Positions 2,971 through 22,069 of a stretch of DNA of 32,000 nt are shown one piece after another. The stretch is from Acaryochloris marina MBIC11017. Lineage in GTDB: Bacteria; Cyanobacteriota; Cyanobacteriia; Thermosynechococcales; Thermosynechococcaceae. How positions within the stretch are numbered: position 1 is the first letter of the stretch; each line of letters begins with the position of its first letter. The translations under genes were made by a program, and so were the position numbers. The notes beneath the pieces were generated by a model. The model saw only the letters and a list, made by a program, of their open reading frames with translations. It searched no databases and was not told the origin of the DNA. Location: contig NC_009930.1 of NCBI RefSeq assembly GCF_000018105.1, forward strand, positions 120,001-152,000, given 5' to 3'.

Positions 2971-3376
2971 AATCGAAAAATGGCTCATGAAGCTTGCGCC
3001 TTAAAAGAAAAAACACCACATTCTTCCCCAAGAGCGGTGTTTTTTCTTGAATGACAATGAATGCCTCAATCAGACTTATTGTTCCCATAGAGGAGAAAAG
3101 GCAAACATCACAAGAATGCCAATGAACAAGACTTAATCATCACAGGGTTATTGGAATTGGGGTGAACGTGGTTAGGAAGCTTTATCACTTCAGATAAATG
3201 AAATTTGAAACGACGTAATTATGTTTGGGGTGAAGCCAATCATCAGGCCAAGCACTAATGTAACTTCAAGCCTACAGATACTCTTCTACCAAAGTGATAA
3301 AAGAGGGCTAAGCAGAAGTGAAGATGCTAAACCATCCTTACTCAACTAGAATTATCCAACTCACATCCAGGTCTGG

Positions 3377-3778
3377 TTAATTGGAGTTGGATAAATCCGT
3401 CTCGTCCTCATCAAAGCGCTTTTGCATCTCAAAGACCTCGATCAGTTCTTTGTTCAGAAAGTAGTTGAGAAAGGTACGAATGATTGCGATGGCACCCAGT
3501 TTCCCGAGTGCCTCAAACGTAGGAGCAACGGTCGTGGCTAAGACATCTGCCCCCAATTGAAACTCCAGAGCTAATGCTAACCATCGTCCAAAAGTTAACC
3601 GCAATCGTCCCAATGGGAACTGTATAGTTGAGCGACGACGGCGCAAATTAACCGAGAGCTTGATGCTCACGAGCAGGCCCAACACAATACAAAAAGCCGC
3701 TACTGCTTCCAGTACTACTTCTAAAAAAGATACGATGATTTCCAAGTTGCCTTGCAAATGGTGGACGACTTCCATCAA
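3377..3778 (-). CDS. DUF1622-like small membrane protein
   Basis: 133 aa with TM helices. The segment GRWLALALEFQLGADVLATTVAPTFEALGKLGAIAIIRTFLNYFLNKE matches the family I remember as DUF1622. Confidence 0.7.
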   Translation of the reverse strand: MMEVVHHLQGNLEIIVSFLEVVLEAVAAFCIVLGLLVSIKLSVNLRRRRSTIQFPLGRLRLTFGRWLALALEFQLGADVLATTVAPTFEALGKLGAIAIIRTFLNYFLNKELIEVFEMQKRFDEDETDLSNSN

Positions 3779-3913
3779 GCTTCAACCTTGACCAGCACAA
3801 CACCCTGCCAAAGAGACTACCCTGTTGTGTACCTTTATTGAGTTATTCTTGCTGGAGGATTGGCAATTCAAGGCCATACCTCCGATTGCTCGGGTGTAGG
3901 GAAGTGACTTAAT

Positions 3914-4032
3914 TAGGTAATACAGATTCTCAGCGGAATCTGAAAGTTTAAGTATGGGGTGCAAGCGGCCACTTTTAGGTGCAATATTGAGTATTGGTAT
4001 CAGGGATGCGATCTCGGCCTAATCCCTAACCC
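3914..4032 (+). repeat. structured dispersed repeat, copy 1
   Basis: TAGGTAATACAGATTCTCAGCGGAATCTGAAAGTTTAAG...GGTGCAATATTGAGTATTGGTATCAGGGATGCGATCTCGGCCTAATCCCTAACCC. 5' hairpin CAGATTC/GAATCTG; 3' hairpin AGGGAT/ATCCCT. Alignable to copies at 9178, 10815 and 12853. Confidence 0.8.
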
Positions 4033-4318
4033 AGCATACCTTCATTCTCTATACCGATCTGAGCCTGCTTTCTTAGTCATGCGGTTCACTCCCCTTTGCC
4101 TTGATACCTTTGAGGGAATGCATCATAGGTGTTTAATGTCAATTAGATAGGCCAAACTTTTTGGTTCTAACTTCATACTTTTAATAGCGGCTCGTGAGTC
4201 GATTTAGATCTTTGCAATATCATCTTGAGATGCCCGAAGAGCGGTCGGAGACCATCGAAAATCATGGTTTTTACCTCAGGTGATCGCGCCATGGACAAAA
4301 TGACAATTATCAATAAAG

Positions 4319-4366
4319 CCACTATTAATAGAGTTGCTTATAAGTAAGCAACTCTATTAATAGTGG
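4319..4366. repeat. perfect 22-bp-stem palindrome inside the IS left end
   Basis: CCACTATTAATAGAGTTGCTTA - TAAG - TAAGCAACTCTATTAATAGTGG, located between the IS terminus and the istB stop (4395). Confidence 0.85.
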
Positions 4367-4394
4367 GGTACAGAGGTTTTATTCTGACTAGAGA

Positions 4395-5192
4395 TCAGCT
4401 GTCAGTCTTTTGAGACTTGGCTGTGTGTTTGGCCGCTTCTTGTTTGCGGAAGCTTTCTGCTTGCATCTCGAAAATGGTGGCGTGGTGAATTAAGCGATCA
4501 ATGGCAGCCACGGTCATCATTGAGTTAGGAAAGATGCTGTCCCATTGACTGAAAGGTTGATTAGCCGTGATGAGTAGGCTCTTTCGCTCATACCGGTGAG
4601 CAATCAACTCAAACAGTACCGAGGTTTCAACATCGGACTTTTGGACATAACCGAGATCATCAATGATAAGCAGATCATAGCGGTCAAGTTTGGACAAGAG
4701 ACTCTGCAATTCCAATTGAAGTTTGGCCAGCTGTAGTTGTTGCACCAGGGTTGTGGCTGTGACAAATTTTACTCGCTTACCCAACTCAATAATAGAAGCT
4801 CCTAATGCAGAGCTGACGTGTGTTTTCCCTGTTCCGCTCGGCCCAAAAATTAGAATGTTGCTACCGGACTCTAGCCAGTGAGTCGTTTGGGCAAACTCCA
4901 TGAGAGCAGCTGGATTAAGGGTGGGAACATGGGCAAACTCAAAATTGGTCCAGGACTTTCCGTAAGGCAGCTGCGCTTCGGTTAGAGCGCGTGAAATCCG
5001 ATTCTGCTCCCGACGGCTGGCTTCGCCTTGAGCTAAAGCCAACAGAAACTGGGCGTAGGACCAATTCTCCTGAGTCGCTTGATGCTCGATGCTCTGCCAC
5101 TCGTCGAGGAAATGCCTCAACCGCAACTGTTTTAGGGTTGTCATCAGCAACTGGTATGGGTTGTCCGGGTCTGCTGTGGAGGAGTTGATCAT
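4395..5192 (-). CDS. istB: IS21-family transposition helper ATPase IstB
   Basis: Walker A FGPSGTGKTH and Walker B LLIIDDLGY. Start taken at MINSS (5192); alternatives are 5258 and 5144. Confidence 0.88.
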   Translation of the reverse strand: MINSSTADPDNPYQLLMTTLKQLRLRHFLDEWQSIEHQATQENWSYAQFLLALAQGEASRREQNRISRALTEAQLPYGKSWTNFEFAHVPTLNPAALMEFAQTTHWLESGSNILIFGPSGTGKTHVSSALGASIIELGKRVKFVTATTLVQQLQLAKLQLELQSLLSKLDRYDLLIIDDLGYVQKSDVETSVLFELIAHRYERKSLLITANQPFSQWDSIFPNSMMTVAAIDRLIHHATIFEMQAESFRKQEAAKHTAKSQKTDS

Positions 5193-6669
5193 AGTCAGAT
5201 AAATCGTGCTGTTGTGAGGTGACGTCAGGATATTGCTCAGTCGAGAGCTTGAATTCAAAGGCTTGTTTTAATCTGCTCAAGGTCAGGGTGGACTGTTCCA
5301 GTTGAGTTTGTAGGTAGTCAGCCACCTGAGATTCTTGATCTTGAGTTGCAGCGATATAGAGGGCTTCGGTGATTAATCGTGCGGCCTGGTCCTGCTCAAA
5401 ATTAGCTTTGAGTGATTCCCACAGCTGATGCCACTGAAGATTGGGCAGTAGCTCTGATTGCCATTGGCAGTAGAGAAACGCGTTTGGCTTTCTCCTGAGA
5501 CTTTCTGCCACATGCTTGTAATCGATGCTGCGAGCGCGTCTTTTCTTCTCAGAGCCATGGACATGGACCCGCGCCAATTCCACTACGGGAGTGGTGCCTA
5601 AGAAACCGACAAGGCGGTCATGGTATAGGTGTAATTTCAAGCGGTGGCCAATTAAGCGAGAGGGGACTGTGTAAAGGACACAGCGGACGGCAATCGTGCT
5701 ATTGCAGCTGACTTTGGCACTGCGCACTTCATAATCAGGAGTTCGGTATCTGGGCAAGGGCTGTAAGGTGGGCAGCTCCAGTGCAAACTTTTTTTGGCAC
5801 TTGGCATTCAGCTTGGCGATGACTTGCTCGATGAACTGCTGATACTCAGCTACCGAGTCAAAGTCAAAGCTGCCTCGACGATACAGGGCTTGGCACAGGC
5901 GTCGTTTGAAATAGCCATGAGACCCCTCTATTCCGCCATTCTCATGAGAGACACCCAGATTGTTGCGTGTTGGCTGCATCCGGTAATGGTCACACAGAGT
6001 CGAATACAACTGGGTCAGCTGGGGATTGCGGCCGCCAGTATTGCGATAAGCCGCACTCAGACTATCGGTACGATGAATCTTGGGCACGCCACCACAGGCG
6101 GTTAGAGCATTTTGTAGCCCTTGGGATAAGCCGATAAAACTTTCTCCGCCTTGAATCACCTGCACGTACTGCCAGCCGCTATAGCTCAGTCGATAGTGAT
6201 ACAAGATATGGTGAAAGGCTTCACCCTGAACCGTCACACTGAAACCTTTGAGCTGAGCGAAGTCTGACTGTCCCATCTCCCCAGGATGATGTTGAATTTT
6301 GAACATCACTTCTTTGGGCTTGCCATGAGCTGCCTTCCATTTAGCGGTTCGGCGTTGCACGGTTCTGATCTTGTCATCATATTGCCCAGGATGGTTCTCT
6401 TGTAAGGTCTCAAATAGAGTAGTCGCTTCTAATCGAGGCTCACGCTCTAACATCGGCTCAAGTTCTAATTCCCATAATCCATCCAGCGGATCTTCACGGG
6501 TTTTCCAGTCATGAGGGCGGCCGCGTTGGGGACGATGAGTACCACTATCAATGCGGTGGGCTGTGCGGGTAGAAATGCCAGCTTTAGCAGCTGCTGTTTC
6601 TTGAGAAGAGCCGGATTGTTTTGTCTGCATATAAAGATGAACCTGTTGAGGTTTAATAGGAGCTGGCAC
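4939..6669 (-). CDS. istA: IS21-family DDE transposase IstA
   Basis: N-terminal HTH (AAAKAGISTRTAHRI). DDE region (SDFAQL ... HRTDSLSAAYRN ... ENGGIEGSHGYFK). The characteristic C-terminal ...DLSDYDQLL is present. The last ~70 codons run out of frame across istB. Confidence 0.88.
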   Translation of the reverse strand: MPAPIKPQQVHLYMQTKQSGSSQETAAAKAGISTRTAHRIDSGTHRPQRGRPHDWKTREDPLDGLWELELEPMLEREPRLEATTLFETLQENHPGQYDDKIRTVQRRTAKWKAAHGKPKEVMFKIQHHPGEMGQSDFAQLKGFSVTVQGEAFHHILYHYRLSYSGWQYVQVIQGGESFIGLSQGLQNALTACGGVPKIHRTDSLSAAYRNTGGRNPQLTQLYSTLCDHYRMQPTRNNLGVSHENGGIEGSHGYFKRRLCQALYRRGSFDFDSVAEYQQFIEQVIAKLNAKCQKKFALELPTLQPLPRYRTPDYEVRSAKVSCNSTIAVRCVLYTVPSRLIGHRLKLHLYHDRLVGFLGTTPVVELARVHVHGSEKKRRARSIDYKHVAESLRRKPNAFLYCQWQSELLPNLQWHQLWESLKANFEQDQAARLITEALYIAATQDQESQVADYLQTQLEQSTLTLSRLKQAFEFKLSTEQYPDVTSQQHDLSDYDQLLHSRPGQPIPVADDNPKTVAVEAFPRRVAEHRASSDSGELVLRPVSVGFSSRRSQPSGAESDFTRSNRSAAALRKVLDQF

Positions 6670-6944
6670 TAGAGGTTCCTAATTGCGTAGGAGTACAAAC
6701 CCTAGTGTCTTTCCTGTATGGGGATATAAAAAATCGAAAGTGACTGATGCTCTCTCTGCAGATGTGATCTCTGGATTGAACTAGATCCTGATTCCTAGAG
6801 AAGACTATGCAATTGACAACCTCTGTCTACGTAATTGTCACTCAACTATCATAGGCGCTCATCTCTAAGCGCATGCCTATCGTTTTGGATAATTCTTCTT
6901 CAGTATTGTCCTCTCTGGGAATGGGTTTGAGATAATTTTATCAG

Positions 6945-7511
6945 TCAGCCCAGGCTATAACTTGTGCAACCCCAGTGTTCCATTTTCGGTATTCGGGGAC
7001 CACACCATCCTCGTTTTTTTAATTCTCTAGCAATAAACAGATTGGTGATGCCATGGCCAACTAAAACAACAGAGCTAGCTTCATAAGATTGCTGTTCTAA
7101 TAATTCGGCAGCTTTTTTCACTCGTTTTTTGATGTGGGCTTGAGATTGAGCATGTGATGAGCAACCCAAACTCAATAGCAACCTATCCAGAAAAAGCCAT
7201 ATATGAAAGGGTAAACGAATATTGATGGGACACTCAAGCCAAAAATCTACTTCACGAAAAATGGGATCACTGACAGGAGGAATGGTAGGTTCAAGGATTT
7301 GGGCAGAGTGCATCGAACGAGGAATATCGCTTGTGAACACTAGTTTTGCTGATTGAACGAGTACTTGAACATCACCTGTAGGAAAGGAGTCACTGGCAAT
7401 CTTAGCTGATTGAATTCGATTAATGACCTGTGGTAACTCGTGACCACCTATCCACCCTTGTGGAGTGATGGTAGGTTTCCCATGTCTTATCAAGGATATG
7501 GTTCTGCTCAT
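6945..7511 (-). CDS. histidine phosphatase family protein (phosphoglycerate-mutase-like)
   Basis: N-terminal LIRHGKP (RHG catalytic motif) and distal VLVGHGITN second-histidine motif. Confidence 0.8.
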   Translation of the reverse strand: MSRTISLIRHGKPTITPQGWIGGHELPQVINRIQSAKIASDSFPTGDVQVLVQSAKLVFTSDIPRSMHSAQILEPTIPPVSDPIFREVDFWLECPINIRLPFHIWLFLDRLLLSLGCSSHAQSQAHIKKRVKKAAELLEQQSYEASSVVLVGHGITNLFIARELKKRGWCGPRIPKMEHWGCTSYSLG

Positions 7512-7761
7512 ATCTCAGAAGTCTATTGTTCATCACTAAAGATAGGCTAGCTCACAATGGAAGATGCCAAATTTAGTTACCAAACTTAGTAGGTAGGCTT
7601 GGGAAGCGTTACTAGAGGGATGCAAGGCTAGTCGGAAGCGGCAGGTGGTTGAGCTACCAGCCGATCTATTGGGTGTAGCAGCTTAGCCCTTGGTCTTATT
7701 CACAAGAGTCCATATCCCCTTAGCTATGAAGCTTAAAGGGTTACTACTTTCGTATTGTCTT

Positions 7762-7769
7762 GCGATCGC
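7762..7769. repeat. HIP1 octamer GCGATCGC
   Basis: Exact match to the highly iterated palindrome of cyanobacteria. Two more copies lie at 23433 and 26381. Confidence 0.9.
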
Positions 7770-8002
7770 AAAACCGCTCATTCCACATTCCCTCCATATC
7801 AGACCTTAACTAGTTAATATAAATCCCCTGTAGAATCTGAGATTTTATCGCTTCAAAAGCAGTCAACGGTATTTCACAGGTAGAATTGCAGAGCTTTCTA
7901 AGCAGCATCTCCAGCAGTCATGTGGATTGTCGCTGCATAAATCATCTCTACCAAGGGTTCGGAGTCTTTTAACTGGAGAAATTCTAAGGAATGAACCACT
8001 CA

Positions 8003-8764
8003 TCAGTTGGCTTTAGATTCCTTAGTAGCTGCATGATAAAGAGGGGTGGCGATGGTTCCAAGTACGTTCAATACGGAAAGTATACTAATCAGCTTCCATG
8101 ATGTTGAAAAATTATCTGGAGCCATAATGTTTCCCAAAAGCACCATGGAAAACATGGCAATAATGCCAAGGGTCACATATCGCACATTCTGGACAGTCTG
8201 ATTGGTTGTATGGATCCTTAATAACAGAGAACAGTGAGCAAAGGCGACTGCAACAACGAGGAAAGAGAAACGAACCTGGAGCAATTCTCCCCAGTTGTTG
8301 ATTTCTTGATTGGCTAAGATAGCCAGATTATTCACGAAAGCCCAAAATCCGCTAAATACTGATACTGCAATACCTATCTGACCAAATCTATGGTGTTGTG
8401 GATGACCAATTAAAGTCGAGCAACACAAACCAGTCATACTGTAGGTTCCTAGAGATACTGTCGTAAGCAAGATAGTGGCTTGGCTGGTATCAAAACTAGA
8501 TGTAATCAGGGAATAGATAGCGGTCAAAGCGCCAAAAATCAAGCACCCAATTAGACTAATTAAAAATAAGCGTCGATAAACAAACCCCTGTGTCGGAAGT
8601 GAGTCAGACTTCTTAAGGTTAGCCTTCGACTTTGCAGAAAGTTCTGAAATCGGTGGAGGTGGTACCAAGATATCTGCGCTACAGCTGGGACAGGTCATCA
8701 ATTGTCCAGATTGCCCATTGCTTGTTTCGATTTTGTAGCCGCAATAGGTGCAGTGAAATTTCAT
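8003..8764 (-). CDS. membrane protein with N-terminal zinc-ribbon
   Basis: CTYCGYK...CPSC (a CxxC...CxxC ribbon) followed by about six hydrophobic helices. Confidence 0.65.
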   Translation of the reverse strand: MKFHCTYCGYKIETSNGQSGQLMTCPSCSADILVPPPPISELSAKSKANLKKSDSLPTQGFVYRRLFLISLIGCLIFGALTAIYSLITSSFDTSQATILLTTVSLGTYSMTGLCCSTLIGHPQHHRFGQIGIAVSVFSGFWAFVNNLAILANQEINNWGELLQVRFSFLVVAVAFAHCSLLLRIHTTNQTVQNVRYVTLGIIAMFSMVLLGNIMAPDNFSTSWKLISILSVLNVLGTIATPLYHAATKESKAN

Positions 8765-9177
8765 GTTGACCTGCTCTGAGGTGCGGTTTTCTGGATTCGT
8801 TCTTTATAAGCAGACTGAGTATAAGGATCATTCCTAGACCCAATGTGCCCACATGATTGGAATCTATGATTGTTCAAAGACATCCCATTATCATCAGCTT
8901 GCCCTAAGAATTGACATAGTTGATCGTTGGGCTAGTATTCTATATCTGCTGTTTAGACATAGAAAACCCACTAAATCCCCTTCTGAATCAAAAATCTCAT
9001 CACCCTAGGCTGTTCACTGAAATGAGATTCATTGAGTACCACTGTGAAATCTTTGCCCGAAGTATTAGAGTAATAGGCCAGTTCAAACAAAAAAACTATC
9101 GTTGGTGATGCTAATTACGAGATTTACTGACCCGAAGGGTCACTCTAGATCAACGGTCATGATTCATCCACAATTAC

Positions 9178-9301
9178 TGAGTAATACAGAATCCGCAGAG
9201 ATTCCAAAAGTTTGAAAGTCTGGGTGAAATGAATAGGTGTAATGTCGGAGTGTTGGTATTGTTCAAGAGTTCGCATTGCCTCACTCCTAATCCCCAACAC
9301 C
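9178..9301 (+). repeat. structured dispersed repeat, copy 2
   Basis: TGAGTAATACAGAATCCGCAGAGATTCCAAAAGTTTGAAAGTCTGGGTGAAATGAATAGGTGTAATGTCGGAGTGTTGGTATTG...CCCCAACACC. Ends 79 nt from the stop of the minus-strand pentapeptide gene. Confidence 0.8.
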
Positions 9302-9380
9302 ACTTCCCCAAAACCTGCTCAATGGGCGAAGACACAGCCGCATCCTACCCAACAGTCAAGGCATATGTCATGCTGTTTTT

Positions 9381-10145
9381 TTAACAATCACGATCAGGAT
9401 TATGCTTGGAGCCTTTTGGAAGTTTAGTTCTACATAAGAGTGCTTTACCAAGCTGCTGATCAGTCCATTCAGAAACGTTTGTAAGAATAGCATTTGTCAG
9501 GTTAGCGGATTCAAAATTAGCCCTACCAAGAGAAGCTTTACTCAGGTTAGCTTCGCTCAAATTTGCTTTACTCAGGTTAGCTTCAAGAAGGTCGGCTTCA
9601 GCAAGGTTTGCACCCCGCAAATCAGCATCTTCAAGATGGGCCTTATACAGTTGAGCATTGACCAGACTAACATCTTGCAAACCGATAAATTGATCTACCG
9701 GATCTTGGCTTACTTGTCGCGCAATAATCACCTTGATGGCTGCCTGTATATCTTCAGAAATGGGTTCGCTCTGAGCCTTATCCCTATCTAGGGGTGATTC
9801 TTTGGCAATATAACTGACCAGAAATTCCATAATTGTCCAATGATCACTTGGGGAATCCTGAGCTATTTTTTCCAAAGAATAAATCCCCCCAATTCGTACC
9901 AATGGATCTGGATTGCCGAACAGTTTAATTGCTTCTGCAAATCGATCTGAAACACTTCTTTGTTCTGAAACAGCAAGTTGCTTTGTTGCAATTGATCGAT
10001 CGAATACGGAATCTTGGTAATTCAGAAACAATCCGAAAGCAATAGCAGTGCTCCCCACTAAACCCAATAGAGAAATAAGAACCTTAGCAGCTTCTCGATT
10101 ATCTTCCTGGAGCAAAAAGTTCCATACTTTATTAAAAGTCATCAT
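9381..10145 (-). CDS. TM-anchored pentapeptide-repeat protein
   Basis: N-terminal TM helix (VLISLLGLVGSTAIAFGLFL), a helical linker, then ADLRGANLAEADLLEANLSKANLSEANLSKASLGRANFESANL. Confidence 0.85.
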   Translation of the reverse strand: MMTFNKVWNFLLQEDNREAAKVLISLLGLVGSTAIAFGLFLNYQDSVFDRSIATKQLAVSEQRSVSDRFAEAIKLFGNPDPLVRIGGIYSLEKIAQDSPSDHWTIMEFLVSYIAKESPLDRDKAQSEPISEDIQAAIKVIIARQVSQDPVDQFIGLQDVSLVNAQLYKAHLEDADLRGANLAEADLLEANLSKANLSEANLSKASLGRANFESANLTNAILTNVSEWTDQQLGKALLCRTKLPKGSKHNPDRDC

Positions 10146-10209
10146 TCTTTTATTGTTATATAGTCAAATAGAAAACAGCCCCCCTTAAAATAGTTTGATG
10201 AATTGTCCA

Positions 10210-10437
10210 TTAGTCAGTTTTAGCGGAGAATGGCTGTAACAGCCGCTTAAGGCATTTACTGCCAATCTTGATTAGGACTAACCACACCAACCTGACAATC
10301 TCGCCAAATCTAAAATATCCTCTTTTGGGAATATAAGGCTGGTTCGATTGGTAACTAGATGCAGCCAGAGCAATGATCTGGATACTGACGATTGCCAAAA
10401 TCCTATAGATCAATGGAACTGACTTAACCTTGATCAA
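10210..10437 (-). CDS. possible small membrane protein (75 aa)
   Basis: ORF with one hydrophobic stretch (IYRILAIVSIQIIALAASS), on the same strand as the neighbouring gene. No other support. Confidence 0.25.
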   Translation of the reverse strand: MIKVKSVPLIYRILAIVSIQIIALAASSYQSNQPYIPKRGYFRFGEIVRLVWLVLIKIGSKCLKRLLQPFSAKTD

Positions 10438-10814
10438 GCAGCCAGCTTAGGCTTTGAGAATAGAGCACAGTTATTCATCTCTACCTCCATAGTCCAGTCT
10501 GGATAAGAGTTTTTAACGACTTTTAAAATAGCCTCGCACTGATTTCAAAAAAAAGTGTATGTGAGTCATAAAGATGAAAGCACTTCTGTACATTTCTCTA
10601 TCGCTTCGGCAAAAGTTCGCAAAATTTCATCTATTTGTCTGTGAATAGACCAGGGGGAACAACACCTTCCCATTTAGCGTTGAATTAGAGTTTGGCATTT
10701 GTTGAAGTCCTGGCATAGGTGTGGGTTATTGAATAATCTTGCCTAAGCAATATGAATTCTCTAGGGATTTCAAAAGACTGAGTTGTGTTTAGGTGGATAG
10801 GTGAATGATCGAGA

Positions 10815-10939
10815 TAGGTAATACAAAATCCGTCGAGAATTTGAAAATGTGAAAGACTGAGTGAATTAATAGGTGTGATGCCGAGGTGTTGGTATTGAGT
10901 TGCGATAGCGGGGCAACACTCGGAATGAGATCCCAACAC
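10815..10939 (+). repeat. structured dispersed repeat, copy 3
   Basis: TAGGTAATACAAAATCCGTCGAGAATTTGAAAATGTGAAAGACTGAGTGAATTAATAGGTGTGATGCCGAGGTGTTGGTATTG...TCCCAACAC. Ends 158 nt from the GNAT gene stop. Confidence 0.8.
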
Positions 10940-11073
10940 GAAACTCATCTTTACGGTTCCAGCGGCTGATACAACAGCGGTAGCAGCGAAGAAAAGTCAA
11001 GGGTCACCTTGAAGTACAAGCCACCTAAAAGGAAGCCAATCAAGACACCGTTGCTGGTGTGTCCAATACTAAA

Positions 11074-11090
11074 TGGCCTATTTTAGGCCA
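11074..11090 (-). terminator. short hairpin just after the GNAT stop
   Basis: On the minus strand, GGCCTA-AAA-TAGGCC is followed by ATTTAGTATT. Short stem, weak U-tract. Confidence 0.3.
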
Positions 11091-11097
11091 GCCACAT

Positions 11098-11598
11098 TTA
11101 AAGTTTTTGACACAGCCACACACTTGGAATCTGGACTGTAAACCCAGATTTCTCATAAGCTCGACGAGCTGGGGCATGACTTGGGTCTCCACCCGTAGCC
11201 ACCGTTGCAACTTGCATCCCTGCTTCTTTCATTTTTGAGATCACAAAGTCATACATGATGGTGCCAATGCCCCTTCCCGCATGGTTGGGGTTTACGGCGT
11301 TAAGTCCAATCTCACCAACTTTCCGATCTAAGTTGAGTTGGAAAGAGATAAAACCAACGACTGAGCTATCAATCACAGCAGTATAGACTTCCCAATCAGA
11401 GTCAGGTGCGAGTAATGAGGCAAGAAGTTCGCCTTGTGCTTCATCTTCATGCGCTTGAGCCAAATTGTAGATCTCATCCCCCAAAATTTTACGGAATGAG
11501 GCAAAGACAGGTGCGAACGCTGCCTTTCGTATATTTTCTAAATAAGGGAGATCAGTTGAGTTCGCTGAGCGAATTACAACATTTGGTTTAGAGCCCAT
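11098..11598 (-). CDS. GNAT family N-acetyltransferase
   Basis: 166 aa. Acetyl-CoA motif A NHAGRGIGTIMYDFV and C-terminal ARRAYEKSGF. Confidence 0.85.
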   Translation of the reverse strand: MGSKPNVVIRSANSTDLPYLENIRKAAFAPVFASFRKILGDEIYNLAQAHEDEAQGELLASLLAPDSDWEVYTAVIDSSVVGFISFQLNLDRKVGEIGLNAVNPNHAGRGIGTIMYDFVISKMKEAGMQVATVATGGDPSHAPARRAYEKSGFTVQIPSVWLCQKL

Positions 11599-11677
11599 AT
11601 TCGCTATTTCTCGGGTTCTTAGACAATACCCCTAGTTATAGCTATTGTTCTTCACTTTTTACTAACCAGCCCCTACT

Positions 11678-12802
11678 ATGTCACGAATATCAGTCACTAC
11701 GAAGCGAGGCAAGTTCAATAAGTCTCTATGGCTACTACTAATTATTGCCCTTGTTGCTCTTTACCTAATTGCCTGGCCTGTACCCATTGAACCTGTCGCA
11801 TGGGAGGCACCATCCAACCCTGGCTACAGCGGAGCATTTGAATCCAATCAGCGTCTCAAAGATATTCAGAAATTACCTCTAAGGGACAATCATGGCCCTG
11901 AGGATATTGCCCTAGATAGCCAAGGACGTATTTATGCCTCGACCCATGAAGGTCGGATTGTGCGACTGCTACCCGATGGTTCAAGCTCACAGAATTGGGT
12001 CGAAACGGGTGGTCGCCCACTGGGCATCGATTTTGACAAGAGTGGTCATTTGATTATTGCTGATGCGTTTCGTGGCCTTTTATCCATAGCAGAAGACAAA
12101 ACTATTACAGTGTTGGCCACTGAAGCGGACGGGGTACCAATTAGCTATGCAAATGATGTAGACATAGCCGATGACGGCAAAATTTACTTTTCAGACGCTT
12201 CTACAAAATTTGGGGCAAAGGAATGGGGAGGCACCTACGAAGCCAGCCTTCTGGATCTGATGGAACATGGAGGTCATGGAAGACTGTTAGTTTTTAACCC
12301 TACTGATGGAAGTGTTCAGACACTATTAGACGATCTGAACTTCGCCAATGGCGTTGCGCTCAGCCACGACCAAACGTATGTGCTAGTCAATGAAACGGGG
12401 AATTACCGAGTGATTCGTTATTGGCTCAATGGCCCCCAGAAAGGTCAATCTGAGACCTTTCTCAAAGACTTACCGGCTTTCCCCGATAACATATCCACGG
12501 GGCTAGGCAATCGCTTCTGGGTGGCACTGGTTTCTCCTCGAAGTGCGGTATTAGACCAACTATCGAATAAGCCATTTATGCGCAAGGTGATACAGCGTCT
12601 GCCAGCATTCCTACGACCTAAAGCACAGCCATATGGTCATATTATTGCTGTTGATGGCAGTGGTAACGTTGTTCAGAATTTACAAGATCCACAAGGGACC
12701 TATCCCCTGAACACAGCCATAACTGAAACGGAGGAATATCTCTATATTGGTAGCCTGGTAGCACCAAATATCGGACGTTTATCAAAGCCAGATGATTTTT
12801 AA
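11678..12802 (+). CDS. strictosidine-synthase-like / SMP-30-like beta-propeller protein with N-terminal TM anchor
   Basis: GPEDIALDSQGRIY, GRPLGIDFDKSGHLIIADA, ANDVDIADDGKIYFSDAS, NFANGVALSHDQTYVLVNET and YRVIRYWLNGPQKG are the typical repeated blades. Confidence 0.85.
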   Translation: MSRISVTTKRGKFNKSLWLLLIIALVALYLIAWPVPIEPVAWEAPSNPGYSGAFESNQRLKDIQKLPLRDNHGPEDIALDSQGRIYASTHEGRIVRLLPDGSSSQNWVETGGRPLGIDFDKSGHLIIADAFRGLLSIAEDKTITVLATEADGVPISYANDVDIADDGKIYFSDASTKFGAKEWGGTYEASLLDLMEHGGHGRLLVFNPTDGSVQTLLDDLNFANGVALSHDQTYVLVNETGNYRVIRYWLNGPQKGQSETFLKDLPAFPDNISTGLGNRFWVALVSPRSAVLDQLSNKPFMRKVIQRLPAFLRPKAQPYGHIIAVDGSGNVVQNLQDPQGTYPLNTAITETEEYLYIGSLVAPNIGRLSKPDDF

Positions 12803-12852
12803 TCCTAAGGAACTTTCAATGAGTTAGTTGCCAAACTCAACCTGAAATTTCT

Positions 12853-12961
12853 TAGGTAATACAAAATCTATAGAGATTCTGAAAAATTGAAAGACTAGGT
12901 GATTTAATAGGTGTGATATCGGGGCTTGGGTATTGGGGCTGCGATCTCAGCCCCAATACCC
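12853..12961 (+). repeat. structured dispersed repeat, copy 4
   Basis: TAGGTAATACAAAATCTATAGAGATTCTGAAAAATTGAAAGACTAGGTGATTTAATAGGTGTGATATCGGGGCTT, then a perfect 14-bp hairpin GGGTATTGGGGCTG-CGATCT-CAGCCCCAATACCC. Ends 22 nt from the stop at 12984. Confidence 0.85.
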
Positions 12962-12983
12962 AGCTCACAAACCTGCGGCCTTA

Positions 12984-13256
12984 TCATTGATTGGTCAACA
13001 CCTTGCGCTCCGAACCACCGAACCGCAACCACCAGCAAGGATTGAGTGGGTCGGAGCAGATGGCATACTTGGGCAGGTTCACTCCCACGATCAAGCCAGA
13101 GCCAGCTAGGAACACAACCAAGAGGATAAGGATTGCTGACGAGTTCGCCATCAGGGATAGGCACCGATTAATTTGGTTGATAGTTCGCTCATGCCCCAGA
13201 AGCTTCAGCTCCCTGGCTTGGATGATAGATACCTCGTCTAAGGCAATCGCTCTCAT
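12984..13256 (-). CDS. small membrane protein (90 aa), last gene of the parM-like operon
   Basis: Its ATG (13254-13256) overlaps the TGA (13253-13255) of the upstream gene (ATGA coupling). One TM helix (AILILLVVFLAGSGLIVGV). Confidence 0.45.
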   Translation of the reverse strand: MRAIALDEVSIIQARELKLLGHERTINQINRCLSLMANSSAILILLVVFLAGSGLIVGVNLPKYAICSDPLNPCWWLRFGGSERKVLTNQ

Positions 13257-13801
13257 TCGGTGGGCAATGTCTCGGTAGATGAGTTCGTCGAGGCTGGCAG
13301 CGCTGTTTGCTTGGCTTGAGCCGCTAGCCGCTCTCTTAGCCTGGAGGTGAACGGCCCAGGCTTTTTTGCTAACTCGTCTGGATCCTCCACAACTGCTTTT
13401 TGCACACGGGCATTTGCAAAGACGTGGTTCAGCCGACTCATGTAGGCACCCAAAACAGCCTTTTGCAGATCATCGCCATAACCATCAAGGGTCTGCAGCA
13501 CCCTTTCCCCATCCTCATCCGCGATTTTCTCGGCGCGCTCCAAGATATGGTCGGTGCCATCTGACTTTTCAGCAACTGGCTCAGCTTCAACGGGCACCAC
13601 CTCTGCCTGTATTTGCTGCCATGCTTCGGTATAGGTGATTGCTCCGCTTTGCTTGTGCTGCACCACCTCCTTCAACATCTCAATATCTGATTCAGAGAAT
13701 TCCTCTGTCTCCCCTAGCCCACAGATACCGCGAAGTTCAATGAGGTCTTCTTTGCTAATCTGTAAGGTCTTGAGGGTCTTGCTAAAACTTTGATTACTCA
13801 T
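13253..13801 (-). CDS. acidic hypothetical protein, 182 aa
   Basis: Clean ORF that starts 3 nt after the stop of the upstream 122-aa gene. No motif recognised. Confidence 0.65.
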   Translation of the reverse strand: MSNQSFSKTLKTLQISKEDLIELRGICGLGETEEFSESDIEMLKEVVQHKQSGAITYTEAWQQIQAEVVPVEAEPVAEKSDGTDHILERAEKIADEDGERVLQTLDGYGDDLQKAVLGAYMSRLNHVFANARVQKAVVEDPDELAKKPGPFTSRLRERLAAQAKQTALPASTNSSTETLPTE

Positions 13802-13804
13802 TTT

Positions 13805-14173
13805 CTAGTCAAACTCCAATTCAGGTTCATCTTCGTCTGGTTCACAATTTTGAGGGGACATATCAGCAGAGGTTGTTGCTTGCACCACCTGGCTAGCAGA
13901 AACATACCCATTTTTTTGGCATTGGTTCAGGGCTTCTCGATGAAGATCCCGTATTTCATGAGCTGATGATTCGATAGCATTTTGGATATCTGCCGCACTC
14001 CCTCCCTCAATCGCAATATGAATCGGTTCAAAAAGATCCACTAATGCCAGCTCAACTGTCTTCTTGAACTTAGAGCCATAAAAACTCCTTGCACTTTTAA
14101 TGATCAGCTCTTGCTTAGAGCCTGAAATCGGTTGGCAGCGAATAATAATGTTTGTCCTATTTGGCTTGGGCAT
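13805..14173 (-). CDS. small DNA-binding adaptor candidate (ParR-like), 122 aa
   Basis: Lies immediately downstream of, and overlaps (17 nt), the ParM-like gene. Basic N-terminus with a beta-strand-then-helix pattern (NRTNIIIRCQP...QELIIKSA) and a strongly acidic tail (EPDEDEPELEFD). The functional call is positional inference. Confidence 0.45.
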   Translation of the reverse strand: MPKPNRTNIIIRCQPISGSKQELIIKSARSFYGSKFKKTVELALVDLFEPIHIAIEGGSAADIQNAIESSAHEIRDLHREALNQCQKNGYVSASQVVQATTSADMSPQNCEPDEDEPELEFD

Positions 14174-15290
14174 ATTCTTTTACTCCTTTGGGTGTCCAGG
14201 TGCGCCCGGTTACGTGTAGATGCAACATCCAAACATCGATGGCTCTATAGGCCCACTGGGTATTAATCTCTTCAAACTCATCCGATAGCTGCTTGATAGC
14301 CCCATTGAGGGGTTTAAACGCACTACCAAACAGGGCCTTGAATCGGCTTTTGTAAATGGGGGCATTCCCACCCACCAAGTAAAACGCTTGGGCCTGCTTT
14401 ATCCCCCGGTCGCTATCAATACGTTGCTTAATCTCACCCCAATTTTTGTTGAACCCTTCCCTTGTCTGAGTCAGTTTCTGCTCTAAGCGGTGGGGCTTGA
14501 TGAGTGCGGCTAATTCTTTTCTGGCCTGGTCTTGCTTGTTGGGTTTATCCATCAATGCCAGAAACCGGAAGACGGCTTTTGCCCCCTGCACATCATCCGT
14601 AAAGTGCATCACTGAATTCACTATCGAAGACATCCCCAACCCTTCAAAGGTTTTGGACTTCGGGTATGCCAGGGGTCGGCCATCCTCCACGGCAATAAAG
14701 TTGGCATCCTTATGACCGCAGACTCCGACATAAGCTGTGATATCCGGTGGGGGTATCGTTGCCATCCCTGCCCCCTCCATATACCCCTTGGCATCTACAG
14801 CCGCAAAATCAATATGGCGACCGTTGTACCCAAATCCACCCAGCAGGCACGAGAGGAGGTCACTCTCCAAGTCTGCATACTCAGTCCACTCACTGATCGG
14901 TAGCATAAAGTTGATGACGAGCTTGACCCGATCTGGGGATAGCTCTGGGACGCGATCCAGGGCCAAACCCACGAAAGCAAGAACCTTGGGGACCAGCAGA
15001 TCGGCCTTACTCATGTTTGGGTCAGTCTTCGTCCCAGCATGGCCAGGGATTTCCCCCACAATGCGGAAGACCCAATCGCTACCCTGCCTGAAGGTCACCC
15101 GTGACGTTTTGGTTGTACTTCTCCTCTTGTCGTTTTCATAGTTGCTCTGCATTAAGAAGCCAACATTAGGAGGTTGATTGATAAATCCCTCATGGGTTCC
15201 TCCATCAAAGTCAGCTAAGAAAAATCCACGGGTTGATGATGACCCGGTGTCAATGTTGAGATGCAATATTGCACCCTGAGAAAAATTCAT
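14157..15290 (-). CDS. ParM/StbA-like actin-family segregation ATPase
   Basis: LNIDTGSSSTRG compares with ParM FIDDGSTNIK (phosphate 1). FMLPISEWTEY compares with CTLPLTEYY. YLVGGNAPIY compares with VIGGGAEL (phosphate 2). GGAG lies upstream of the ATG. Confidence 0.65.
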   Translation of the reverse strand: MNFSQGAILHLNIDTGSSSTRGFFLADFDGGTHEGFINQPPNVGFLMQSNYENDKRRSTTKTSRVTFRQGSDWVFRIVGEIPGHAGTKTDPNMSKADLLVPKVLAFVGLALDRVPELSPDRVKLVINFMLPISEWTEYADLESDLLSCLLGGFGYNGRHIDFAAVDAKGYMEGAGMATIPPPDITAYVGVCGHKDANFIAVEDGRPLAYPKSKTFEGLGMSSIVNSVMHFTDDVQGAKAVFRFLALMDKPNKQDQARKELAALIKPHRLEQKLTQTREGFNKNWGEIKQRIDSDRGIKQAQAFYLVGGNAPIYKSRFKALFGSAFKPLNGAIKQLSDEFEEINTQWAYRAIDVWMLHLHVTGRTWTPKGVKEYAQAK

Positions 15291-15328
15291 TGTGACGCTC
15301 CAAAAGTTTCAAAAATCTTTCACGTCAC

Positions 15329-15343
15329 AACATTACCCAGAAT
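15329..15343 (-). promoter_or_regulatory. backbone box 1 (ATTCTGGGTAATGTT in the transcription direction), upstream of the parM-like operon
   Basis: Exact inverted copy of the box at 15633-15647, 38 nt upstream of ATG 15290. Contains the -10-like hexamer TAATGT. Confidence 0.6.
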
Positions 15344-15360
15344 AAAAAAAGTTGAACCCA

Positions 15361-15531
15361 AAGCACTGCACTGAAAATGCATTGTTGTAGTCAAAAAATG
15401 CACTAGATTTGCAAGGTTTTGCACTAGGAATACACTACATAGCTTCAAAAATGCACTAGATTTGCATGGTTCTGCACCGAAAATGCACTCTAAAAAAATC
15501 CTGGAAAAACACCCCTCAAATGCAGTCTAGG
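15361..15531. promoter_or_regulatory. iteron cluster (candidate parC centromere and/or oriT)
   Basis: Five AAATGCA cores (AATGCA at 15376, 15397, 15450, 15482 and 15519). A 30-nt unit AAAATGCACTAGATTTGCAAGGTTTTGCAC (15395-15424) recurs at 15448-15477 with 2 mismatches (53-bp period). Confidence 0.6.
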
Positions 15532-15632
15532 AGTGGATTACAGCGGATGAAAACTGCGGATCGTCGGAAAAAATTTTAATATATGCACTACGCCCACCTT
15601 TTGGGCCATCGCGAAAATTCCGAAAAACAGAA

Positions 15633-15647
15633 ATTCTGGGTAATGTT
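15633..15647 (+). promoter_or_regulatory. backbone box 2, upstream of the relaxase operon
   Basis: ATTCTGGGTAATGTT, 36 nt upstream of ATG 15684. Confidence 0.6.
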
Positions 15648-15683
15648 GAAGTGTGGAAATTTTCTTAGTGAGAGGTGATCGAC

Positions 15684-19999: not shown

Positions 20000-20059
20000 G
20001 AGCGATAGCTTTCTGTTTATGAGGCTATATTCATAAGCTGCTGTCGATTTAGTCAACTG

Positions 20060-21966: not shown

Positions 21967-22069
21967 GCACACCCAGGATATTCCTCCCCTATCCCTTCCC
22001 GAAACCAACAACCAAAACGGGTCATCTACCAAAAGACAACCCGACAATGAACCCAATATTGCTTGCCCC

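Follow-up and report, generated by a model that had tools for sequence, protein, structure and literature searches.

The window, the whole 32,000-nt stretch of DNA analysed, carries four full plus-strand copies of a repeat, hereafter E, on the left of a four-gene partition (par) operon and a relaxase gene. The copies and the features around them are listed below.

3906-4040, plus strand: E copy 1 (nhmmer E-value 5e-30, rebuilt profile 1e-18; alignments)
4254-6847, minus strand: IS21-family element, istA and istB (93.5% identity to ISAcma38 on pREC3; Pfam)
7749-7790, plus strand: fragment like the 3' part of E, TCGTATTGTCTTGCGATCGCAA...CCACATTCCCTCC (weak, nhmmer E-value 0.09)
7808-7846, plus strand: weak left-box match (repeat search family D4, 70% identity; nhmmer E-value 0.047 to 0.001)
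9173-9345, plus strand: E copy 2, long form, 9173-9302 plus a conserved tail to ~9345 (nhmmer E-value 3e-35)
10739-10803, plus strand: degenerate half copy, left box and part of the core (nhmmer E-value 3e-4; left-box profile 1e-3)
10808-10941, plus strand: E copy 3 (nhmmer profile matches)
12846-12968, plus strand: E copy 4 (nhmmer E-value 3e-33)
12984-15290, minus strand: four-gene partition-type operon, ParM-like 377 aa, then 122, 182 and 90 aa (annotation; ParM-like protein 26% identical to pREC4 ParM/StbA)
15965-19999, plus strand: MOBF relaxase-helicase with C-terminal DUF3854, Toprim-like (Pfam, NCBIfam)

An earlier note on this DNA had described four plus-strand copies, and a profile built from them recovered all four (nhmmer E-values 5e-30 to 3e-35), as did a profile rebuilt from 21 family members (1e-18 to 8e-29). 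The count holds for full copies, but extra pieces lie at 10739-10803, 7749-7790 and 7808-7842. Alignment confirmed the consensus given in that note, and the distances it had given between copies and minus-strand stops (9381, 11098, 12984) were reproduced. Terminal inverted repeats are absent, as it had said, and the flanking target is not conserved either.

Copy 1 is the most divergent copy in the window, with a 12-nt insertion and without GAAAGACTGGGTGA. It lies 133 nt upstream of a DUF1622 gene (3377-3778, minus strand), and 214 nt to its right begins the IS21 insertion, which sits between copy 1 and a histidine-phosphatase gene and is separate from E. Copy 2 comprises left box, core, palindrome and a tail, CACTTCCCCAAAACCTGCTCAATGGGCGAAGACACAGCCGCA, that is common by alignment to the par-operon-adjoining copies on other plasmids. 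A pentapeptide-repeat gene ends (stop codon at 9381) ~40-80 nt from it, and copy 2 is orthologous to the copy at 18344 of the related locus L001, both being inside a block of 95% identity. The half copy starts 70 nt upstream of copy 3, and the same tandem of half and full copy was found on L001, L002, L006, L010 and L011 (spacing 70-74 nt in seven loci). Between copy 3 and the end of a GNAT acetyltransferase gene (stop codon 11098) there are ~160 nt. Copy 4 has a perfect 14-bp hairpin around GCGATCTC and is separated by 20 nt from the end (stop codon 12984) of the last partition-operon gene. As to the weaker pieces, the fragment at 7749-7790 lies at the right end of a 4.75-kb segment (~3026-7775) that is missing in pREC4 according to the junction alignment and has CCACATTCYYTCC direct repeats on both sides. 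The minus strand of 7808-7846 holds the last codons (...SQILQGIYIN stop, translation read from sequence) of a geneA-like pseudogene whose end is homologous to the geneA 3' ends on L009, L002 and L001; the left-box match there may be a chance match or a relic.

Anatomy and folding of E

E is a family of mosaic repeats of ~100-170 nt. It is non-coding, as the earlier note had held, since aligned copies differ by indels of 1, 5, 7, 8 and 12 nt. A left box of ~40 nt (YTAGGYAATAYA, then the imperfect inverted repeat CAGAWTC-N6-GAWTCTG, then GAAA) precedes a conserved core of ~45 nt (GACTGGGTGAATTAATAGGTGTGATGYCGRGGNGTTGGTATYGAG), and the 3' part is an imperfect palindrome with a HIP1 site (TTGCGATCGCAA) at its centre. 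In long forms the outer arm of the palindrome is an inverted copy of the core. The parts also occur separately: the left box was found without the rest of E (68 profile matches in 10 loci), one hairpin-insert type is dispersed on many plasmids by itself, and pREC3 has retained the hairpin half alone. Identities between copies are poorly correlated between the two halves (r = 0.24). Copies are 75-90% identical to one another, and even those that are 20-35% different elsewhere all retain TAGGTG, GGTAT and AATACA, suggesting a sequence-specific function that the mosaic-repeat model does not name.

The repeat had been described as structured, with two stems kept despite sequence change. Copy 4 did fold better than shuffled sequences (plus strand z = -3.05, minus strand z = -5.43), but copies 1-3 did not (z = +0.25, -0.81 and -0.33). 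The compensatory AT swap proposed for the 5' stem was not upheld, as 76% of cells pair against 80% in shuffles across 21 family members; the swapped position is unpaired in 18 of the 21, mostly as A.A or T.T in our reading of the alignment. Nor is the 3' hairpin a single conserved stem, being instead a variable palindrome derived partly from the core and partly from other small palindromes. A covariation check on the E family found no support. The consensus fold of the long palindrome favours the minus strand (-21.3 versus -14.0 kcal/mol on the plus strand; ~17 versus 4 G.U cells). This asymmetry is uneven across the family (G.U pairs: minus strand 94, plus strand 75), and in one copy plus-strand folding is strongly favoured.

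Distribution, position and orientation

The family has at least 24 full copies, all on MOBF-type Acaryochloris plasmids. Across 72,556 plasmids searched, E was located at 18 to 33 places, all of them on Acaryochloris plasmids (8 to 15), and the only true match among 185,579 species genomes was one Acaryochloris MAG contig. Metagenome scans returned chance matches only, no Rfam family matches E, and we found no paper on E repeats in the literature.

On every related plasmid, an E copy abuts the 3' end of the partition operon. The spacing from the last gene of the operon is 13-65 nt (433 nt for one truncated copy) over the window, pREC4, pREC3, S15 unnamed10 and unnamed15, pMB04, pMB06 and pMB08. 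These par-adjoining copies share their strand with the relaxase gene and point towards it. Copies lie on the accessory side of the partition operon, within a few kb of it, and the relaxase/T4SS side has none. Orientation is unchanged though neighbour genes vary, E standing after plus-strand higA as well as after minus-strand genes. S15 unnamed15 has a second group of copies ~60 kb away in the opposite orientation, inverted along with neighbouring genes. Between the window and pREC4 the relaxase proteins are 32% and the ParM proteins 26% identical, the last par gene cannot be aligned, and the par-relaxase spacer shows no DNA similarity. The placement and direction of E hold on plasmid backbones that are just 26-32% identical in protein. 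The palindrome end of E faces the stop codon of the neighbouring opposite-strand gene, at 12-160 nt in ~17 of 21 copies according to the annotations.

Homology breaks at E copies

Blocks of homology between plasmids begin and end at E copies, which separate modules of varying order and content:

Window: par - E - SMP-30 + GNAT - E - pentapeptide - E - ...
L009: par - E - geneB - E - geneA - E - X
L001: par - E - geneB - E - pentapeptide - E
L002: par - E - geneY - E - geneA

Copy 4 had been placed at the junction of cargo and backbone, and the comparison with pREC3 agrees: window positions 12965-30480 are 92.5% identical to pREC3 from the end of copy 4, and the DNA left of copy 4 is unrelated to it. 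Junctions fall at several positions within E. They were located at the 5' edge in several plasmid comparisons (imprecisely, as a BLAST alignment runs through any E copy), near position 50 (L009 versus L002), near position 60 (copy 4 versus pREC3), near position 72 (copy 3 versus L001) and at the 3' edge (L009 versus L001). In copy 3, the left 72 nt go with the pentapeptide module, as on pREC4, and the hairpin with the GNAT/SMP-30 module, as on the S15 plasmid and a MAG contig. In pREC3, a 1.2-kb non-coding stretch beside the partition operon holds scattered and truncated E fragments.

Interpretation of E

We tentatively favour reading E as a mosaic repeat, intergenic or at transcript ends, that offers homology between its direct copies for module exchange by general recombination. 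The BIME/REP and ERIC repeats of enterobacteria act as mRNA-end hairpins and as rearrangement substrates. Like E, they are extragenic, non-coding imperfect palindromes of 40-170 nt, assembled from interchangeable sub-modules and found at gene 3' ends or between cistrons. They have no sequence relation to E and occur chromosome-wide, whereas E has few copies in one region of certain plasmids, strictly in one orientation and common to plasmids with very divergent backbones. The palindrome would most likely be the transcript-end hairpin of the neighbouring opposite-strand gene; counting against this, a scan found no hairpin-plus-T-run terminator in any E copy. Homology breaks are expected wherever any repeat is present; they show that recombination happened at E, not why E is kept. 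The single orientation fits a strand-specific role, as the repeat's own transcript or as single-stranded DNA, at least equally well.

The first of these roles, which we consider unlikely, would make each E a transcription unit, with promoter or start in the left box, the core as RNA body and the palindrome as end. The product, a plus-strand sRNA or convergent antisense RNA of ~90-130 nt, would run with the ardC, higBA and sigma-factor genes and opposite to the par operon and small cassette genes; it would be expected to start just after TAGGTAAT and end at the hairpin. In favour of this, E keeps its orientation whatever neighbouring genes do, and at two conserved loci a lone left box runs up to the start codon of a gene on the plus strand (hyp442, moxR), in one of them giving the -10 of a TTGACT-17-TAATAT promoter. 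Several copies have a purine-rich stretch upstream with TAGG(T/G) 19 nt before GGTAA, resembling the Synechocystis SigF-type promoter (-32 TAGGC / -12 GGTAA; PMC2532724), and E-bearing plasmids encode sigma-70-family genes of their own. An RNA start inside the 5' inverted repeat would also explain a 5' stem without covariation. However, full copies have the hexamer TAATAC or CAATAC, without the final T needed by sigma-70-type promoters, and GGTAA varies among copies (GGCAA, AGTAA and GTTAA also occur). The sRNA or antisense gene suggested in the earlier note gained nothing from a scan of all copies, which showed neither a sigma-70-type promoter nor a hairpin-plus-T-run terminator, nor from the Rfam and covariation results. 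No T-run follows the hairpin, the minus strand of long palindromes folds better, opposite to the proposed RNA, and no sequence complementary to the core, as a target for it, was seen in the window. The likeness of GGTAAT to a backbone box, also raised earlier, is probably due to chance, and the link to backbone promoters is weak, since the box that sister plasmids have in this position is a different one.

It is less probable that E works as single-stranded DNA on the transferred strand, as a priming or initiation (ssi-like) signal in the leading region. Complementary-strand synthesis would then start at E in the recipient, perhaps via the Toprim-like DUF3854 of the relaxase, a domain related to the primase Toprim domain. 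All E copies lie on that side of the par/oriT region which is away from the relaxase; in F and R388 this side enters the recipient first, and by analogy we presume the same here. ArdC-like, HigBA and sigma-factor genes lie on it too, all directed at the relaxase. Leading-region genes have the transferred strand as their template, and such regions are known to carry dispersed Frpo/ssi repeats of one orientation (PMC11541004). Frpo/ssi repeats of the F and ColIb-P9 type are, like E, dispersed same-orientation non-coding hairpin repeats beside oriT on the side away from the relaxase, where anti-restriction and toxin-antitoxin genes also lie (PMC11541004). The presumed transferred (minus) strand of E would present a hairpin followed by a conserved single-stranded stretch, and it folds better in long forms. 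E differs from Frpo/ssi in being shorter, usually not upstream of a co-oriented gene, and inverted as one group on one plasmid. An Frpo identity was rejected, as no stem rebuilds a -35/-10 promoter and E is therefore not an Frpo-type single-stranded promoter. Further points against a single-stranded signal are the oppositely oriented second group on S15 unnamed15, ~60 kb off, and the presence of a copy on pMB05, which is typed as non-mobilizable. The plasmid search gave no E on the plasmids of A. marina MBIC11017, all of which except pREB9 carry a MobF relaxase. Conservation over ~95 nt is also unexplained by this role.

We give little credence to E as a dedicated site-specific cassette site, whether attC-, Xer/dif- or relaxase oriT-like, with crossover in the left box, at its imperfect 7-6-7 inverted repeat, or in the palindrome. 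The arrays do look cassette-like, with short genes of unknown function closely spaced (stop codon, 13 nt, E, 14 nt, start codon) and in varying order, and the geneA module has left-box-like sequence at both sides. The left box is shaped like a tyrosine-recombinase core (two 7-bp inverted arms, 6-bp spacer), and MOBF relaxases can recombine oriT-like sites (PMC3264647, PMC4176350). Nevertheless, a domain search of the 32-kb window found no integrase, recombinase or Y1 transposase, recombinase genes at related loci are unlinked to E arrays, and at least five different junction positions occur. Almost every copy has its own spacer in the inverted repeat, the par-relaxase spacer, the expected place of oriT, has no similarity to E, and matches to the R388 nick core GTATTGTCT are at chance level (10 found versus 6.05 +/- 2.5 expected).

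The attC repeats of sedentary arrays (~123 nt in Vibrio cholerae) share with E a similar length, high mutual identity, a single orientation after gene 3' ends, a place between short, tightly packed genes of unknown function, and array content that varies between relatives. Unlike attC, E has ~60 nt of conserved non-palindromic sequence beside the palindrome, its junctions are spread over many positions where attC has one GTT, and its modules may hold genes in either direction. Integron attC identity was rejected: the palindrome arms GTTGGGG...CCCCAAC are the reverse of the attC order RYYYAAC...GTTRRRY, and there is no IntI and no attI. The pdif sites of Acinetobacter plasmids likewise are short repeats that bound accessory modules on unrelated backbones of one genus, with no recombinase encoded beside them, but they are 28-bp XerC/XerD sites of alternating orientation; E is 4-6 times longer, has one orientation, and resembles Xer sites solely in the 7-6-7 inverted repeat with its variable spacer. 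A recombination site bounding gene cassettes, as the earlier note put it, holds in part: copies separate modules of variable order and content and homology begins and ends there, yet junctions are scattered and no recombinase is linked.

A non-autonomous transposable element, IS200/IS605 palindrome-associated or MITE, is highly improbable. E is a short non-coding unit that could form hairpins near both ends, and it keeps one orientation per region, as expected for one-strand inserters, and Acaryochloris plasmids are IS-rich, including a TnpB gene on L015. IS200/IS605 palindrome-associated elements share its strand specificity, its hairpins near both ends and its lack of terminal inverted repeats. 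They differ in having a conserved target or cleavage motif, a cognate Y1 transposase (absent from the window and related loci), a defined right end, dispersal and filled/empty-site evidence. E lacks terminal inverted repeats, target duplication and conserved nucleotides at its left end, its 3' boundary is undefined, and a related half copy precedes many copies. The only TnpB found lies 2.4 kb from the nearest copy, copies are very few and all beside the same operon (one MAG only among GTDB representative genomes), and no empty-site polymorphism was seen in orthologous 95%-identity regions. IS200/IS605 element, MITE and CRISPR array each failed a defining test. The three candidates of the earlier note are thus partly supported: the IS200/IS605 element is not supported, and the recombination site is closest to the evidence.

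To return to the favoured mosaic repeat, the plasmid comparisons show that modules have been inserted, lost and exchanged by recombination between E copies, which has also set the boundary of cargo and backbone at copy 4. A circle with one E would integrate at a resident copy, giving a same-orientation array automatically. Given several junction positions and no linked dedicated recombinase, the general (RecA-type) recombination of the host is the most likely agent. Being common to co-resident plasmids with very different backbones, E provides these Acaryochloris plasmids with ~100 bp of portable homology.

Results

A repeat family restricted to Acaryochloris plasmids

We show that E, a non-coding repeat of ~100–170 nt with a left box of ~40 nt, a core of ~45 nt and a HIP1-centred palindrome, is an intergenic mosaic element restricted to plasmids. 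Mosaic intergenic repeats are a familiar kind of element, of which E forms a new family. Profile searches recovered the four copies where the earlier note had placed them (E-values of 5e-30 to 3e-35, and 1e-18 to 8e-29 with a profile rebuilt from 21 members), all on the plus strand, together with partial matches:

3906–4040, plus strand: copy 1 of E
9173–9345, plus strand: copy 2 of E
10808–10941, plus strand: copy 3 of E
12846–12968, plus strand: copy 4 of E
10739–10803: degenerate half copy of E, 70 nt upstream of copy 3
7749–7790: fragment like the 3′ part of E
7808–7842: weak left-box-like match, formed by the last codons (minus strand, ...SQILQGIYIN stop) of a pseudogene akin to geneA, an accessory module

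The left-box-like match at 7808–7842 may be due to chance. The distances that the earlier note gave to the stop codons at 9381, 11098 and 12984 were correct, as was its view that the copies are not coding, since indels of 1–12 nt between them rule out a common reading frame. Terminal inverted repeats were absent, as it had reported, and so was a conserved flanking target.

BLAST searches of 72,556 plasmids with several copies returned Acaryochloris plasmids only (18–33 places on 8–15 plasmids), belonging to strains MBIC10699, S15 and 'Moss Beach'. An exact 18-base pattern from the core, searched in one genome per species, matched one Acaryochloris metagenome-assembled (MAG) contig and gave five chance matches; two metagenome scans yielded chance matches only. 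All known copies are on plasmids and one MAG contig, within searched collections that did not take in the chromosomes of the E-bearing strains. Profile searches of ~330 kb of fetched plasmid DNA gave 24 distinct full copies. Rfam produced no match at gathering thresholds over the whole window, and in E-value mode copy 4 and three copies from the plasmid pMB06 matched generic hairpins only, far under gathering scores. The paper describing the MBIC10699 plasmids is silent on E, and we found no other paper on it.

All copies of E are intergenic or overlap unsupported ORFs only. Public "hypothetical protein" CDS overlap E in five fetched Acaryochloris loci (L001, that is pREC4, 18346–18567; L002, S15 unnamed15, 9527–9697; L011, 13275–13442; L010, 4630–4800; L013, 14193–14432), and are probably spurious calls. 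A small ORF in E was rejected: many copies have ATA in place of the ATG that follows AGGTGTG, and frames differ.

Anatomy and folding of the repeat

The left box reads YTAGGYAATAYA, then CAGAWTC-N6-GAWTCTG, then GAAA, and also stands alone as a repeat, its profile giving 68 matches over ten loci, most of which share the strand of the full copies. At two conserved loci, 5′ of a 442-aa gene and 5′ of moxR, it ends at a plus-strand start codon, and at one of these it provides the -10 of a TTGACT-17-TAATAT promoter. It occurs after higA and ardC as well, and one subfamily of full copies lies 28–74 nt downstream of higA on four plasmids. The imperfect inverted repeat of the left box could be a candidate binding site for an HTH protein. 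Among the higA genes in the fetched loci, five of seven are followed on the same strand, within 28–74 nt, by a full copy or lone left box. Those followed by E or a left box are:

L011, 268–623: higA
L011, 12984–13406: higA
L012, 5799–6218: higA
L014, 11644–12065: higA
L015, 11636–12048: higA

Many full copies have a half copy 70–74 nt upstream, and half copies and 3′ halves are also found alone. Between-copy similarity is poorly correlated across the two halves of E (r = 0.24), and TAGGTG, GGTAT and AATACA are invariant among copies that differ by 20–35% elsewhere. The longest copies carry a core, GGGTGAATTAATAGGTGTGATGYYGRGGATTGG, that pairs with its own inverted, degenerate copy, CCAATCCCCAAYAYCACMCCCGMAATCACTTCCCC, across the HIP1 palindrome TTGCGATCGCAA, followed by a common tail, GAAACCTGCTCAATGGGCGAAG. 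In other copies unrelated hairpins take the place of the inverted-core arm. One of these substitutes is a small palindrome, GCGATGG...CCGACCGGCCTTCGGCCATCGC, i.e. GCGATGG(T/C)CTCCGACCGGCCTTCGGCCATCGC (for example L012 6207–6246), which seems to be an insertion into a HIP1 site (GCGAT|CGC). Copies of the same palindrome are scattered across many Acaryochloris plasmids and in some cases directly adjoin the ends of IS21-family elements (CP071719, CP071720, CP071724).

The structural claims of the earlier note fared less well. It had called all four copies structured; folding gave z = +0.25, -0.81, -0.33 and -3.05 for copies 1–4, so that copy 4 alone beats shuffles. Its conserved 5′ stem was paired in 76.2% of cells across 21 distinct members, against 80.3% in column shuffles. 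Where it saw an apparent compensatory A/T swap, 18 of 21 sequences have no pair, with ~12 A.A and 6 T.T by alignment, and the T.T subfamily looks like the same imperfect palindrome inverted. Its 3′ hairpin likewise dissolved as a single conserved stem, the family showing differing arms.

For the five long copies, the consensus fold reached -21.3 kcal/mol and 26 pairs on the minus strand versus -14.0 kcal/mol and 17 pairs on the plus strand, with ~17 G.U cells on the minus strand versus 4 on the plus. Pairing in the long palindrome came to 86.8% for the minus strand and 85.9% for the plus, and covariation did not rise above shuffles in this set of few independent sequences (79 of 500 shuffles reached the observed value on the minus strand and 448 of 500 on the plus). 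Over all copies, G.U pairs numbered 94 on the minus strand versus 75 on the plus, one copy strongly favouring the plus. The strand asymmetry (G.U versus A.C) is clear in the five long-palindrome copies and non-uniform family-wide.

Backbone and cargo of the host plasmid

The window is a portion of a conjugative-type Acaryochloris plasmid, with these features:

15965–19999, plus strand: MOBF relaxase-helicase gene, DUF3854 at the C-terminus
15290 to 12984, minus strand: four-gene partition operon (par), divergent from the relaxase
15362–15489: eight or more iterons containing TGCACT (AAAATGCACT...), 5′ of the ParM-like gene
15313–15343 and 15633–15663: 31-nt inverted repeat flanking the iterons and containing both divergent backbone boxes
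15332–15338, minus strand: backbone box AATTCTGGGTAA(T/G)KTT
15638–15644, plus strand: backbone box
24203–24209, minus strand: backbone box
26043–26049, minus strand: backbone box
29081–29087, minus strand: backbone box
4254–6847: IS21-family element

Upstream of a ParM-like gene is the usual site of a type II centromere, and such iterons are typical there; the TGCACT iterons are likely the parC centromere and promoter. DUF3854 is kin to the primase Toprim fold and also occurs in CyRepA1 and CyRepA2, replication proteins of cyanobacterial plasmids (PMC10079941). The product of 15965–19999 may be a relaxase-primase fusion. The relaxase gene is followed by a T4SS coupling protein and further transfer-region genes. 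Directly after it, at 20041–20175, we observed a 135-nt non-coding element with a very stable fold (-49.4 kcal/mol, z = -4.3) and two CGCTGCAAGCAG(A)CGGGG motifs. It has 83–95% identity to sequences from two other Acaryochloris plasmids and a Kovacikia minuta plasmid, has no Rfam match and is possibly MITE-like.

Five backbone operons (those of par, the relaxase and the coupling protein, and two in the T4SS region) have the backbone box 30–50 nt 5′ of their start codons. The box resembles GGGTAAG, the -12 element of Synechocystis SigF-type promoters (PMC2532724). The earlier note had likened the GGTAAT at the 5′ end of E to this box. The resemblance to the SigF -12 element holds; the link between E and the box is weak, because sister plasmids carry ATTCTGCCTATGTTC or GCAAGCCTATAGATA at that position instead, and we keep it as a lead. 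Since these sister sequences resemble an ordinary -10 region, the box may be an ordinary -10 region plus operator.

The A. marina MBIC10699 plasmid pREC3 matches the backbone from 12965 to ~30480 at 92.5% identity. The cargo left of 12965 is a patchwork, with pieces akin to pREC4, strain S15 plasmids and a MAG contig. The scan scored 4319–4366, within the IS21-family element and 3′ of istB, as terminator-like; it is a perfect inverted repeat of 22 bp with a 4-nt loop. Eight tandem 126-nt units, 75–84% identical, at 29338–30519 lie within a 787-aa NB-ARC/TPR gene and are coding TPR repeats rather than a non-coding array. Base-composition skew tracks gene orientation and gave no replication landmark.

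A recurrent position and a single orientation beside par

In the window, as on eight plasmids, E stands directly after the final par gene, 13–20 nt from it in five cases and 65 nt on unnamed10 and pMB08; on pMB04 a truncated copy lies 433 nt away. These par-adjacent copies share the strand of the relaxase gene. More copies occur within ~10 kb on the par side away from the relaxase, and none on the relaxase/T4SS side. Between the window and pREC4, the relaxases are 32% identical, the first par product shares 26% identity with the ParM/StbA protein annotated on pREC4, the final par gene is unalignable and the par-relaxase spacers have no DNA similarity. The E copies on these old backbones are 75–90% identical.

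In about 17 of 21 copies, 12–160 nt separate the palindrome end of E from a minus-strand stop codon. The other end faces the next minus-strand start codon, at a distance of 14–64 nt, or the end of a plus-strand gene. S15 unnamed15 carries a second group of copies ~60 kb away, inverted along with the neighbouring higA, HU and sigma-factor genes.

Homology between plasmids breaks at E

Blocks of homology between plasmids start or stop at E copies, and the arrays beside par differ in their modules.

Order of modules from par outward (geneA, geneB, geneY and X are accessory modules)
pMB06: par, E, geneB, E, geneA, E, X
pREC4: par, E, geneB, E, pentapeptide gene, E
S15 unnamed15: par, E, geneY, E, geneA
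Window: par, E, SMP-30 + GNAT, E, pentapeptide gene, E, geneA remnant + 253-aa gene, fragments, phosphatase gene, IS21, E, DUF1622 gene

The junction lies at the 5′ edge of E in several comparisons, ~50 nt into E between pMB06 and S15 unnamed15, ~72 nt into E between copy 3 and pREC4 (identity up to GTGATG), and at the 3′ edge between pMB06 and pREC4. The clearest case is copy 4 against pREC3, where the alignment begins within the repeat at TAATAGGTG. pREC3 has only the 3′ half of E, and to its left lies unrelated DNA with scattered E fragments. A 4.75-kb segment of the window (~3026–7775) is absent from the otherwise 96%-identical pREC4 region. It is bounded by CCACATTCYYTCC direct repeats at ~3016–3026 and 7776–7790, and holds the DUF1622 gene, copy 1 of E, the IS21 element and a histidine-phosphatase gene.

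Comparison with known element classes

E is like REP/BIME/ERIC-type elements in being an extragenic imperfect palindrome built of sub-modules that also turn up in other combinations.

The earlier note had proposed a recombination site bounding gene cassettes. Plasmid comparisons support a module boundary, and the evidence points to general rather than site-specific recombination; a site-specific cassette site fails at least one defining test. An integron attC is an imperfect palindrome with R'' (RYYYAAC) 5′ and R' (GTTRRRY) 3′. On our reading of the alignment, the E arms GTTGGGG...CCCCAAC have the reverse order on either strand and are internal to the repeat. IntI and attI are dispensable for a CALIN; no Phage_integrase domain was found in window ORFs of at least 70 aa, and the arrays adjoin the par operon instead.

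Its suggestion of an IS200/IS605 element was not borne out, as both a conserved target before the left end and a defined right-end cleavage site are absent: the 4 nt 5′ of TAGGTAAT vary (TAAT, TTAC, GAGA, TTCT, AAAT, TAGC and others) and the right end is variable. Neither a Y1 transposase nor a TnpB stands beside a copy of E, either in the window or across ~330 kb of related loci, and one TnpB on L015 is 2.4 kb from E. A MITE was rejected because the ends, TAGGTAATACA... and the variable hairpin or tail, are not mutually inverted and the flanks have no duplication.

Frpo promoters are long hairpins whose stem rebuilds -35 TTGACA and -10 TATAAT, 5′ of a co-oriented leading-region gene (PMC11541004). 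No copy of E has a promoter-like site on either strand, direct reading of the palindrome arms found no TAnnnT hexamer with a -35 partner, and most copies have no co-oriented gene downstream. An oriT or nick-site copy was rejected: the E profile finds nothing in the par-relaxase spacer (15291–15965), and E is common to plasmids whose relaxases share only 32% identity. The R388-like nick core GTATTGTCT occurs at chance frequency only.

None of the 20 sites in 3700–13200 that resemble intrinsic terminators falls within a copy; after the stem, the minus strand has the sequence ATTAATTCA, A+T-rich but not a T-run. A CRISPR-like mini-array was rejected because the sequence between left boxes, of which there are at most two, 70–74 nt apart, is conserved and core-like; the sole match to a CRISPR direct repeat scored 16.5 bits (E-value 6). 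A centromere role was rejected: the parC-like TGCACT iterons lie at ~15360–15490, 5′ of the ParM-like gene. TAGGTR, considered as an iteron bound by a protein, was only modestly enriched (33 versus 20 ± 4.6 expected), mostly through the copies themselves, and a trans-acting antisense core has no complementary site elsewhere in the window.

Discussion

Our comparisons show that E is the place where accessory modules have been joined, lost and exchanged, the cargo/backbone boundary included. Because the junctions are spread over E and no recombinase is linked to it, the exchange would most simply be general homologous recombination at ~100 bp of common sequence. We infer that arrays keep one orientation because a circle carrying one copy would integrate into a resident copy. 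Module exchange at E may be a by-product rather than a selected function. The palindrome half is probably a transcript-end hairpin of the adjoining gene, since it abuts the stop codon, travels with the gene and is retained on pREC3, and since the long copies fold better in the sense of that gene.

E could also be a unit that makes a plus-strand RNA of its own, as the earlier note had suggested; both the orientation rule and the likeness of the left box to a promoter agree with this. In some copies a SigF-type promoter (-32 TAGGC, -12 GGTAA; PMC2532724) can be read, but its key bases are variable and full copies have TAATAC, not TAnnnT. Searches for a promoter, a terminator, covariation and, within the window, a target for such an RNA all came back empty.

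We consider it improbable that E is a strand-specific signal on the single strand transferred in conjugation of cyanobacterial MOBF plasmids, whether as a priming site for the relaxase-fused Toprim (DUF3854) primase or as a folded single-stranded recombination site for cassette capture in the leading region during transfer. E does lie amid ArdC-like, HigBA and sigma-factor genes directed at the relaxase, which carries a Toprim-like domain. The relaxase diverges from par and the ArdC-like genes point to oriT, a layout compatible with a place on the transferred strand of the leading region. However, one plasmid has an inverted group of copies, a non-mobilizable plasmid carries E, and the stems hold no -35/-10 pair. 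If this reading were true, E would be a cyanobacterial counterpart of ssi/Frpo or attC, unrelated to them in sequence and structure.

Acaryochloris holds much of its niche-defining gene content on several very large plasmids, and the route by which these genes are traded is poorly understood. The presence of E at every module boundary beside par, across plasmid lineages, offers a concrete, testable route for exchange between co-resident plasmids. In practice, E also serves to mark cargo/backbone boundaries and spurious ORF calls. To our knowledge, ideas on plasmid leading regions have so far been developed in enterobacteria; if E acts on the transferred strand or as its own transcript, it would extend them to cyanobacteria.
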